Source: a virus
Lineage: Duplodnaviria; Heunggongvirae; Uroviricota; Caudoviricetes
Strand: one strand, 5' to 3'
IMG/VR virus record: IMGVR_UViG_2585427757_000021
Length of the DNA: 1,428 nucleotides
A model generated the notes under the pieces. That model searched no databases. It was not told where the DNA came from and saw only the letters and a program-made list of their open reading frames with translations. The translations under genes and the position numbers were made by a program. Positions 608 to 1,428 of this stretch are shown in pieces (the first letter of the stretch is position 1; every line of letters starts with the position of its first letter).

Positions 608-809
608 GTCTCACCCCCTGAATATTCGCGTTAATCATTCCGGCACGTTCTGCGAGTTCCTGTAATGATTCCCTTGTTGCGACAATGGCTTCATCTGGCA
701 GGTGGTAATTACACACCACGCGACCTTTATCCACATTGACCAGTAGCTGCCCGGTAAATTTCTCACGAAACTGAACGCGGTTAAGGTCGGTAAGTGACAG
801 GTTAATCAT
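597..809 (-). CDS. Small hypothetical protein, 70 aa (MINLSLTDLNRVQFREKFTGQLLVNVDKGRVVCNYHLPDEAIVATRESLQELAERAGMINANIQGVRHVQ)
   Basis: ATG at 809-807 preceded by AGGGGGAACACC (GGGGG plus 6 nt; complement of CCCCC at 816-820). The start overlaps the upstream gene's TAA (804-802) by 8 nt (minus strand reads CATGATTAA). Stop TAA at 599-597. Confidence 0.65.
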   Translation of the reverse strand: MINLSLTDLNRVQFREKFTGQLLVNVDKGRVVCNYHLPDEAIVATRESLQELAERAGMINANIQGVRHVQ

Positions 810-1005
810 GGTGTTCCCCCTGGCGAATACGGGCAGCGAATACCATCACGCAGCCATCAGGAGATTGCTGACGCGCTTCCTGTTCGCTGGTGGCCTCAAT
901 GGTAATCACGCGCGGTTGTGCCGTGCTCAGGGCGATAAAACGCCAGATGTATTTATTCAGGTTGTACGAGTCCCGCCCTTGCGGGTGTCTGGTATAATTT
1001 CTCAT
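802..1005 (-). CDS. Small hypothetical protein, 67 aa, first gene of the leftward operon (MRNYTRHPQGRDSYNLNKYIWRFIALSTAQPRVITIEATSEQEARQQSPDGCVMVFAARIRQGEHHD)
   Basis: ATG at 1005-1003 preceded by GAGG plus 5 nt (minus strand ...AGTATCGAGGCAGCT-ATG). Codon choice read by eye is enterobacterial-like (CTG, GCC, CGC, CAG, ACC). Lies about 100 nt downstream of the predicted leftward promoter. Stop TAA at 804-802. Confidence 0.65.
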   Translation of the reverse strand: MRNYTRHPQGRDSYNLNKYIWRFIALSTAQPRVITIEATSEQEARQQSPDGCVMVFAARIRQGEHHD

Positions 1006-1051
1006 AGCTGCCTCGATACTTCTGCTATCGTTGGTGGTTAGACGCCCTGCA

Positions 1052-1064
1052 TGTGTGCGAGCAC
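1052..1064. promoter_or_regulatory. Degenerate operator-like site TGTGTGCGAGCAC (GTGC-GA-GCAC, the core palindrome split by 2 bp)
   Basis: Fourth motif copy, in the ~100-nt leader of the leftward operon. Centre is about 48 bp from the 1102-1113 site, giving a roughly symmetric 48 / 23 / 47 bp spacing across the four sites. Confidence 0.3.
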
Positions 1065-1081
1065 TGCGGGGCGTTGCTTAA

Positions 1082-1101: not shown

Positions 1102-1113
1102 CTGTGCGCACAG
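1102..1113. promoter_or_regulatory. Operator-like perfect 12-bp palindrome CTGTGCGCACAG
   Basis: Exact reverse-complement symmetry. Located immediately downstream of the leftward -10 box, at the predicted transcription start. Shares its TGTGCGCACA core with the site at 1126-1135. Confidence 0.55.
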
Positions 1114-1141
1114 ATTAAAATCATGTGTGCGCACATGTCAA
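1114..1141 (-). promoter_or_regulatory. Predicted sigma70 promoter for the leftward small-gene operon: -35 TTGACA (complement of 1136-1141), 16-bp spacer, -10 TTTAAT (complement of 1114-1119)
   Basis: Minus strand reads TTGACA-TGTGCGCACACATGAT-TTTAAT-CTGTGCGCACAG. The -35 is a perfect consensus and the -10 matches 5 of 6. One palindromic operator copy fills the spacer and a second starts immediately after the -10, over the expected transcription start. Confidence 0.55.
1126..1135. promoter_or_regulatory. Operator-like perfect 10-bp palindrome TGTGCGCACA
   Basis: Exact palindrome lying inside the 16-bp spacer of the leftward promoter. Its centre is 23 bp from the centre of the 1102-1113 palindrome, about two helical turns. 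Confidence 0.55.
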
Positions 1142-1144
1142 TAC

Positions 1145-1173
1145 TTAACATCTCATTTTTTTTGCTGTATTGT
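1145..1173 (+). promoter_or_regulatory. Candidate sigma70 promoter for the rightward RHH gene: -35 TTAACA (1145-1150), 17-bp spacer, -10 TATTGT (1168-1173, preceded by TG at 1166-1167)
   Basis: The -35 matches 5 of 6 and the -10 matches 4 of 6. It sits back-to-back with the leftward promoter, with the two -35 boxes 3 bp apart. The operator-like site at 1173-1182 overlaps the -10 and start region. Weaker match than the leftward promoter. Confidence 0.3.
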
Positions 1174-1209: not shown

Positions 1210-1428
1210 ATGTCTAGCGGTAACACAAACAACAAATCAGCAAAGAAAAATATTCGATTCCCACATGAGCTTATAGATGGGATTGATGCCAGCGTTGAAC
1301 AAGAAAAATTAACTAATCCTAGTGCTAATTTTTCCGCATGGGTCTTACTGCCGGTAAACGCAAATCAAAAGACGACAGCGCCGCAAGGCCAAAGAGCAGG
1401 AGTAACCACCACCAGCGCCGTGGTGTAA
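1210..1428 (+). CDS. Putative ribbon-helix-helix (Arc/MetJ/CopG-like) DNA-binding protein, 72 aa, with a low-complexity C-terminal tail (MSSGNTNNKSAKKNIRFPHELIDGIDASVEQEKLTNPSANFSAWVLLPVNANQKTTAPQGQRAGVTTTSAVV)
   Basis: ATG at 1210 preceded by GAGGTG (1199-1204) with a 5-nt spacer; stop TAA at 1426-1428. The segment KNIRFPHELIDGIDASVEQEKL-TNPSANFSAWV fits the RHH beta-strand / helix A / turn / helix B pattern (compare Arc FNLRWPREVLDLVRKVAEENGRSVNSEIYQRV, recalled from memory). The C-terminal ~25 residues are Thr/Ala/Gln/Gly-rich and probably disordered. Fold assignment is by pattern recognition only. Confidence 0.7.
   Translation: MSSGNTNNKSAKKNIRFPHELIDGIDASVEQEKLTNPSANFSAWVLLPVNANQKTTAPQGQRAGVTTTSAVV

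Follow-up and report, generated by a model that had tools for sequence, protein, structure and literature searches.

The 1,428-nucleotide stretch of DNA analysed here (the window) belongs to the IMG/VR virus record IMGVR_UViG_2585427757_000021 and corresponds to positions 3-1430 of the Escherichia coli contig JOQW01000059.1 (NCBI draft assembly GCA_000714295.1), our locus L002, window coordinates being L002 coordinates minus 2. Our main finding concerns the open reading frame (ORF) at 1210-1428 on the plus strand, which we take, with a probability of about 0.72, to be a frameshift-damaged YlcI/YnfO (DUF3950) gene encoding a ribbon-helix-helix (RHH) regulator of a satellite of the phage-inducible chromosomal island (PICI) type; in its intact form the protein would be an operator-binding repressor of the early operon that starts with an Icd-like gene, and of its own gene. 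The window as a whole covers the regulatory module of a capsid-forming PICI-type satellite, in which the early operon begins and which also holds the control region and the small divergent gene.

The ORF opens with an ATG preceded by a Shine-Dalgarno sequence (GAGG, 1199-1202), encodes 72 amino acids and, as the earlier note on this DNA had it, ends on the last base of the window. Its product matches the NCBIfam model NF041551 (YlcI_YnfO_N) with 41.3 bits (cutoff 30, E 1.2e-10), and the RHH-like pattern that the same note had read in the N-terminal half turns out to be a genuine family signature. Against Pfam DUF3950 (PF13132) the window ORF scores 14.8 bits, below the cutoff of 25, because the frameshift cuts the domain; an intact orthologue reaches 28.3 bits, and all 64 of 64 relatives match. 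The residues N40, F41, S42, W44 and V45 are kept in the window ORF, and the family-conserved D47, A48, C49 and K52 are lost to the frameshift, while R16, F17 and P18 form invariant alignment columns in the family. RefSeq already names the gene as a YlcI/YnfO family protein; a search of the literature for a described function of YlcI/YnfO (DUF3950) proteins found none.

The assignment of the protein to the RHH type of DNA-binding proteins is supported by three kinds of evidence: weak hidden Markov model (HMM) matches among 64 family members (HicB_lk_antitox in 16 of the 64, as well as Arc, NikA-like, CopG_antitoxin and RHH_1), an hhalign alignment laying NIRFPHELI on NLRWPREVL of Arc (E 0.006 over 18 columns), and the co-variation with DNA boxes described below. 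The AlphaFold monomer of the intact 65-residue orthologue has an extended N-terminus followed by helices at residues 19-33 and 41-63. Codons K12 to P18 (KKNIRFP, 1243-1263, plus strand) are the predicted DNA-reading beta-strand, according to the invariant columns, the hhalign register against the NLRWP of Arc and the co-variation; within them K12 and N14 are the specificity positions, which vary with the boxes. Helix A (residues 19-33, 1264-1308, plus strand) follows in the models of both the intact and the window product. A profile search of PDB sequences returned only a chance match of 10 residues to SHQ1, Foldseek of the model against the PDB returned no match, and a Pfam scan of 10 longer, distant family representatives gave only DUF3950 plus one C-terminal helix-turn-helix (HTH) domain, with no bridge to a named RHH family.

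Upstream of the gene lie the sites that the protein is proposed to read. The window has two exact copies of the palindrome TGTGCGCACA and a third with one mismatch, their positions being 1103, 1126 and 1173; at up to one mismatch, three occurrences stand against 0.09 expected, a count reached in none of 200 shuffles, so the palindromes of the earlier note are real and non-random. These three boxes are moreover the only island sites in the 25-kb region of locus L001, that of the complete genome nearest to the window (E. coli E700025, 98.7% identity). Box 1 (CTGTGCGCACAG, 1102-1113) overlaps the -10 element and the start site of the leftward promoter, that of the Icd-like operon; box 2 (GTGTGCGCACAT, 1125-1136) fills the spacer of the same promoter and abuts its -35 element; box 3 (GTGTGCGCCCAT, one mismatch, 1172-1183) overlaps the -10 element and the start site of the promoter of the RHH gene itself. 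The leftward promoter is read as a -35 hexamer TTGACA (1136-1141, minus strand), of which GTCAA is invariant across genera, and, across an 18-nucleotide spacer, a -10 hexamer TAATCT (1112-1117, minus strand), which touches box 1 and has TAnnnT equivalents in other classes. For the RHH gene, a promoter scan gave a promoter-like site composed of TTAACA, 17 nucleotides and TATTGT (1145-1173, plus strand; L002 1147-1175), on the final base of whose TATTGT box 3 starts. All these hexamers are consensus readings backed by conservation across genera, and on these readings boxes 1 and 2 would occupy the core of the Icd-like operon promoter.

The strongest evidence comes from the comparison of this arrangement across genomes. 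A genome-wide scan with the family alignment produced 43 loci, of which 41 represent 16 additional genera (Enterobacterales and Orbaceae), to which 11 E. coli islands, including the window's own contig, were added, making about 50 loci in 17 genera. The upstream layout is nearly universal: box 1, then box 2 at a distance of 23-25 nucleotides and abutting the invariant GTCAA, then a T-rich stretch, a -10 element of the type TGTAT(A/T), and box 3. The boxes share the frame GTG-N6-CAC, and their central bases vary between loci in step with the residues that directly precede the invariant Arg16. About 16 specificity classes were seen, in which the box follows the residues at -4 and -2 from Arg16. 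The class of the window, ..KKN-IR with TGTGCGCACA, occurs in E. coli, Klebsiella, Rahnella, Erwinia and Xenorhabdus; (Y/F)KG-IR goes with GTGTTTAAACAC in Pectobacterium, Xenorhabdus, Pantoea, Morganella and Serratia, TTKG-IR with GTGCA(C/T)A(T/A)ACAC in Serratia, Brenneria, Pectobacterium, Symbiopectobacterium and Xenorhabdus, KKH-IR with GTGTGnACCCAC in Pantoea and Xenorhabdus, and RKD-IR with TGTCCG(C/T)ACA in Gilliamella and Orbus. Within E. coli itself we found ALKA-RV with GTGTGGCCCAC (CFT073), KLEA-RV with GTGTCAGCCAC (KFu019 and SCU-171), TVAA-RV with GTGTT(G/A)AACAC (EC5, WP7-S18-ESBL-09 and DLL557) and QLNA-RF with GTG(A/C)ATCGCAC (O157:H7 2571).

When the control regions of the KKN class from E. 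coli, Klebsiella, Rahnella, Erwinia, Pectobacterium and Xenorhabdus are aligned, the boxes and the -35 element are conserved and the surrounding DNA has diverged. Pairs of the same class from different genera differ at 0.88 of 12 box positions on average, against 14.2 of 30 positions in the adjoining spacer, and inter-genus pairs of different classes differ at 4.24 of 12 box positions; when the class labels were shuffled among 29 genus-class groups, none of 5000 permutations reached the observed contrast. The earlier proposal, made from the window alone, that the palindromes are read by this protein has thereby gained strong comparative support, and the same comparison backs the view that it would recognise them specifically through side chains of its beta-strand. 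One E. coli locus of another kind (L055 425-730, strain SYNB1934, a Nissle derivative) encodes a 101-residue RHH variant with an insertion of about 40 residues before the conserved basic C-terminus, and its boxes occur in both orientations (GTGTAAG.. and ..CTTACAC), which means that operators need not be palindromic.

Natural swaps of modules between islands bear on the same question. AlpA is identical at 60 of 62 positions between this island and that of CFT073 despite their different boxes, the small ORF downstream of the RHH gene is 97% identical across several specificity classes, and, again despite different boxes, KFu019 has an Icd-like gene of about 90% and a primase of about 99% identity. 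Strain EH41 presents the reverse case, the same RHH protein and the same boxes accompanied by an Icd-like protein of 54% and an AlpA of 59% identity. Because these swaps uncouple all three from the boxes, AlpA, the Icd-like protein and the small ORF are excluded as the specificity partner; among the neighbouring genes compared, the box sequence tracks the RHH N-terminus only. The exchangeable unit corresponds to about 1048-1363 of the window, that is, the operators and the first 51 or so codons of the gene, and its right edge is a constant segment made up of the basic C-terminal codons and CCACCAGCGCCGTGGTG. This right-hand flank of the specificity cassette includes a conserved segment past the ancestral stop with the inverted repeat CACCA-GCGCCG-TGGTG (1406-1426, plus strand). 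Over 1,000 E. coli genomes carry the RHH 3' end together with the inverted repeat (about 1364-1426), 82-94% identical and beside unrelated RHH N-termini, and judging from these alignments the segment marks a recombination boundary for the exchange of operator-regulator cassettes. The small ORF of KFu019 likewise ends in ...AKEQE, followed by similar sequence.

From these observations the following mechanism can be proposed for the intact protein of 59-68 residues. It would dimerise and insert a beta-ribbon of residues 12-18 or thereabouts into the major groove of 10-12-bp boxes of the GTG-N6-CAC type, the specificity class ..KKN-IRFPH being directed to TGTGCGCACA; by analogy with Arc and MetJ, one dimer would probably occupy each 10-12-bp box, where Arg16 would recognise the constant outer GTG/CAC and the centre would be left to residues 12 and 14. 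Binding to boxes 1 and 2, and hence to the spacer, -10 element and start site of the leftward promoter, would switch off the operon of the Icd-like, replication and packaging genes. Binding to box 3, on the -10 element and start site of its own promoter, would result in negative autoregulation, and the imperfection of this box would suit autoregulation at higher protein concentration only. The divergent gene order is found in L001, L002, CFT073 and other genera, with the boxes placed in the core promoter of the main operon, as would be expected of a PICI master repressor.

Several points weigh against this proposal. The promoter hexamers are consensus guesses, and formation of the beta-strand is impossible in a monomer model. 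Loci of the same class are somewhat closer overall (14.2 spacer mismatches, against 18.7 for different classes), and the two-residue code has exceptions, e.g., Proteus with EKKN and boxes of the GTGTACACCCAC type and Pectobacterium with KKG and a box of the KKN type, so that further residues must have a part in it. Were the protein the sole brake on the operon, harm would be expected from a frameshifted copy. Furthermore, published work finds the activator AlpA necessary and sufficient for the induction of E. coli PICIs and knows of no repressor (PMC6092414); the literature searched likewise describes none for Gram-negative PICIs.

The damage to the window's copy was established by comparison with three intact E. 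coli alleles, L001 among them. A private patch of 29 nucleotides (1348-1376, plus strand) carries single-nucleotide deletions after 1347 and after 1374 together with six substitutions, and because of the two deletions residues 47-72 are out of frame. Once the two bases are restored, the translation reads ...AWVL.AGKRKSKD.QRRKAKEQE*, which matches the conserved family C-terminus and stops at 1403-1405; the ancestral codons for QRRKAKEQE and the TAA stop (1376-1405, plus strand), encoding a C-terminus identical in CFT073 and KFu019, now lie in frame +1. Intact orthologues have 59-68 residues, the one of L001 having 65 and ending in ...NFSAWVLDACGRKLKYEQRRKAKESE. The 72-residue form, encoded by the single public contig JOQW01000059.1, is a singleton (one cluster member, one contig) in a collection of 5.8 billion proteins, and all 69 of 69 other homologues (53-124 residues, mostly 60-68) align to residues 1-46 only. 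The patch itself was not found in 5,426 complete E. coli genomes, nor, by exact search, in metagenome or viral contigs.

In the AlphaFold model of the window product, helix A is kept, helix B is shortened to a remnant at residues 41-46 (FSAWVL, 1330-1347, plus strand) in place of an intact helix ending at residue 63, and what follows is an unstructured, low-confidence tail, predicted as coil with pLDDT values of 44-51. The low-complexity tail described in the earlier note does exist in the literal translation. It is not a feature of the family, as the singleton status, the deletions and the homologues ending their alignment at residue 46 tell, and the layout of a DNA-binding N-terminus plus a flexible C-terminus has to be given up, the tail being out of frame and the intact helix B spanning 41-63. 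Read against its homologues, the "disordered tail" is out-of-frame read-through and not a domain of the YlcI/YnfO family. Lacking two-thirds of helix B and the basic C-terminus, the window copy is probably non-functional.

The possibility that both deletions arose locally, through faulty sequencing or assembly of GCA_000714295.1, in which case the strain truly has an intact 65-residue gene, touches only the tail, and we consider it unlikely without dismissing it. The confinement of the patch to one draft contig and the odd pattern, for natural mutation, of eight differences within 29 nucleotides would fit such errors. On the other side, all seven indels between L002 and L001 fall at L002 1057-1618, within the regulatory module, and the other 10 kb or so that was aligned, including the integrase and the ilv genes, has none, while every ilv gene is called full-length, two observations that argue against a generally error-prone assembly; neither deletion lies within a long homopolymer; and the six accompanying substitutions also abolish the invariant Cys49. 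The patch shares 14 identical nucleotides (TGCCGGTAAACGCA) with ilvD (L002 8363-8376), 7 kb away, and three of its six substitutions turn the intact allele into the ilvD sequence, which may be coincidence or a short templated mutation. A template switch from ilvD was considered as the origin of the patch and set aside, explaining as it does three substitutions and neither the deletions nor the remaining changes. A second, independently damaged RHH copy was seen in Erwinia tracheiphila (L035), where the frameshift lies about 40 nucleotides into the gene, in a run of 17 A at codons 12-17, and all three TGTGCGCACA boxes are perfect.

The earlier note had also offered the alternative of an antitoxin-like protein with a partner just downstream. 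In its full form this reading has the RHH protein neutralising, as a type II antitoxin, a toxin encoded by the next ORF, with the pair autoregulating its own promoter. A closely following ORF on the same strand was indeed found (L002 1450-1638, plus strand), starting 20 nucleotides past the RHH stop here and at a gap of 43-58 nucleotides in intact alleles; it encodes 62 residues (57-62 across islands), is very basic (RKRRRRK...ERFAPCAFALEQFLKEYR) and belongs to phrog_21027. That far the inspection of the downstream sequence bore the suggestion out; a conserved toxin partner did not emerge. The ORF is present in 10 of 11 E. coli loci whatever the RHH specificity, annotated in CFT073 and KFu019 and unannotated in three, and the eleventh locus, SCU-171 (L051), has a different annotated small ORF at the same position. 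Its proximity, its annotation in two strains, its conservation at the protein level, a terminator-like hairpin following it (L002 1705-1725), the position of box 3 on the RHH gene's own promoter and the weak matches to HicB and CopG antitoxin families all speak for the antitoxin. They are outweighed, in our opinion, by the absence of any homologue of the small ORF after the RHH gene in the other 16 genera examined, where there is often no ORF at all, by the lack of a Pfam or PADLOC match for the small ORF, by the fact that two of the three boxes belong to the promoter of the divergent operon and not to that of the RHH gene, and by the nature of the supposed flexible toxin-binding tail, a frameshift artefact in place of a true C-terminus that prolongs helix B. 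The RHH protein likewise had no match in PADLOC. We therefore rate the antitoxin as very improbable; the small ORF may instead be an accessory factor of the E. coli lineage. In several genomes the small ORF is left unannotated and NCBI calls a minus-strand pseudogene instead.

Two further alternatives concern the boxes. The protein might bind them without being the maintenance repressor, acting as a Cro/Str-like or activating switch factor that, for instance, activates its own promoter from box 2 and merely modulates the early operon, quiescence resulting from the lack of AlpA. The induction of EcCICFT073 by AlpA alone (PMC6092414) agrees with such a role, as do the persistence of a frameshifted copy in this strain and the location of boxes 2 and 1 near -50 and -73 of the inferred rightward start, which is compatible with activation. 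We nevertheless hold it improbable, given that in every class boxes 1 and 2 lie within the core of the leftward promoter, an arrangement classic for repression, and that the RHH gene (with the small ORF in E. coli) is alone transcribed opposite to the island, as maintenance repressors usually are. Lower still, and slightly below the antitoxin, we place the notion that the RHH protein is unrelated to the palindromes and that another factor reads them, be it AlpA, the Icd-like protein, or a protein of the host or of a helper phage: AlpA does regulate by binding DNA and PHROG 6196 and 1743 label Icd-like proteins "transcriptional repressor", but AlpA, the Icd-like protein and the small ORF remain nearly constant while the boxes change, and vice versa, and only the RHH N-terminus tracks them. 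The operator-binding repressor thus remains the reading that we prefer.

The wider setting was taken from E. coli E700025, where the island sits inside yifB, beside the ilv operon. It comprises an integrase, an AlpA-type HTH protein, a gap of about 570 bp, the YlcI/YnfO gene, which is the sole annotated intact plus-strand gene of the island, and then a minus-strand operon of Icd-like, three hypothetical genes, DUF4222, a DUF927 primase, SSB and ProQ/FinO, followed by a capsid and packaging block on the same strand (HK97 capsid, protease, portal, head-tail connector, HNH, TerS and TerL). This gene set matches that of capsid-forming PICIs (compare 10.1101/2022.09.08.507074). Located upstream, alpA is encoded on the strand of the early operon and is convergent with the RHH gene. 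An Rfam scan of L002 1-4200 for C4, IsrK and other immunity RNAs gave just two chance-level matches, and the stretch of about 570 bp between the RHH gene and alpA had no Rfam match.

The divergent early operon starts with the Icd-like gene at 802-1005 (minus strand; NF033153, 70.4 bits), which is presumably what the regulator represses. The 67-residue reading of this gene agrees with the family model (residues 19-62). In the relatives L001, EH41 and XM there is an extra T at window 1056 (L001 13057), with which NCBI annotates in L001 a 116-residue "Icd-like" protein reaching into the control region. The Icd-like protein of this island itself matches the two PHROGs named above, and its NCBI label is "host cell division inhibitor". 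In the 5' leader of the operon there is a conserved hairpin, GACGCCCTGCATGTGTGCGAGCACTGCGGGGCGT (1042-1075, minus strand), the stem of which shows paired substitutions between genera (GAAGCCCG/CGGGCTTC in Klebsiella, GAGGCCCG/CGGGCCTC in Erwinia); the RNA fold of 1006-1100 has -27.2 kcal/mol (z -2.27), and as no U-run follows, the hairpin is not a canonical terminator. A fourth, degenerate box (1052-1064) was rejected as an operator: other genera do not preserve it as a box, and it falls within the loop of this hairpin. Across the RHH 3' end and the small ORF there runs, in antisense, a minus-strand ORF of 199 residues (L002 1347-1946), for which L001 has a partial pseudogene annotated and other genomes have fragments named "Icd-like" or "BRO-N"; in view of its odd composition and poor conservation at the protein level it is probably not a gene and was taken as non-coding.

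Among known systems, the protein resembles Arc/Mnt in mechanism and Stl/Rpr in position, and is a sequence relative of neither. With Arc and Mnt of the phage P22 immI region it shares the small size (about 53-83 residues), the N-terminal strand motif N-x-R-aromatic-P (NLRWP in Arc, NIRFP here) followed by two helices, palindromic operators within back-to-back divergent promoters, autoregulation, which is probable here, and the immunity context of a mobile element, with antirepressor and BRO-N genes adjoining in sister islands. It differs in lacking a significant sequence relationship (the hhalign match to Arc quoted above), in having three separate 10-12-bp boxes, each probably a site for one dimer, rather than one 21-bp tetramer operator, in its long helix B and basic tail, and in being encoded by a satellite, not a phage. 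Stl and Rpr of Gram-positive PICIs, among them the pathogenicity islands found in Staphylococcus aureus (SaPIs), are likewise divergent from the main operon, with intergenic binding sites and many specificity types; Stl proteins, however, are much larger HTH proteins inactivated by helper-phage proteins, whereas the fold here is predicted to be RHH, and the orientation of int and alpA is not that of the RHH gene. RHH-type type II antitoxins (CcdA, ParD, RelB and CopG-type) have in common with it the predicted fold and a probable autoregulation through a box on the own promoter; in the present family, unlike in them, a toxin partner is not conserved, intact members have no disordered C-terminus for binding a toxin, and the main operators lie on the promoter of another operon. 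YlcI and YnfO, encoded by the DLP12 and Qin prophages of E. coli K-12, belong to the same curated sequence family (NF041551/PF13132 DUF3950); their genes presumably stand near lambdoid packaging genes there, not in a divergent regulatory module. Our search of the literature found no link between DUF3950/YlcI proteins and satellite regulation.

A broader proposal, which we put forward tentatively as possible and well below the confidence given to the main finding, is that RHH proteins of the DUF3950/YlcI type fill the place of the missing maintenance repressor in Gram-negative and capsid-forming PICIs, carried on an exchangeable "immunity cassette" (about 1048-1363) with more than 12 orthogonal specificities and a readable beta-strand/operator code, induction occurring through AlpA-driven read-through. 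Transcription from PalpA dependent on AlpA, running antisense over the RHH gene and through the operators, would plausibly override the repressor.

For the window itself, the finding means that its copy of the gene is to be taken as broken and that the "tail" should not be read as a domain. For the family, it provides a concrete candidate for the repressor of Gram-negative PICIs, with operators defined to the base and with natural specificity variants. It leads to predictions for specificity swaps, in which residues 12 and 14 are set against the central 6 bp; the change of K12/N14 to T/G, for example, would shift binding toward GTGCACATACAC. Moreover, orthogonal operator-regulator pairs offer a possible set of small orthogonal repressors, and they would explain how related islands coexist in one genome, where up to six matching places were seen.

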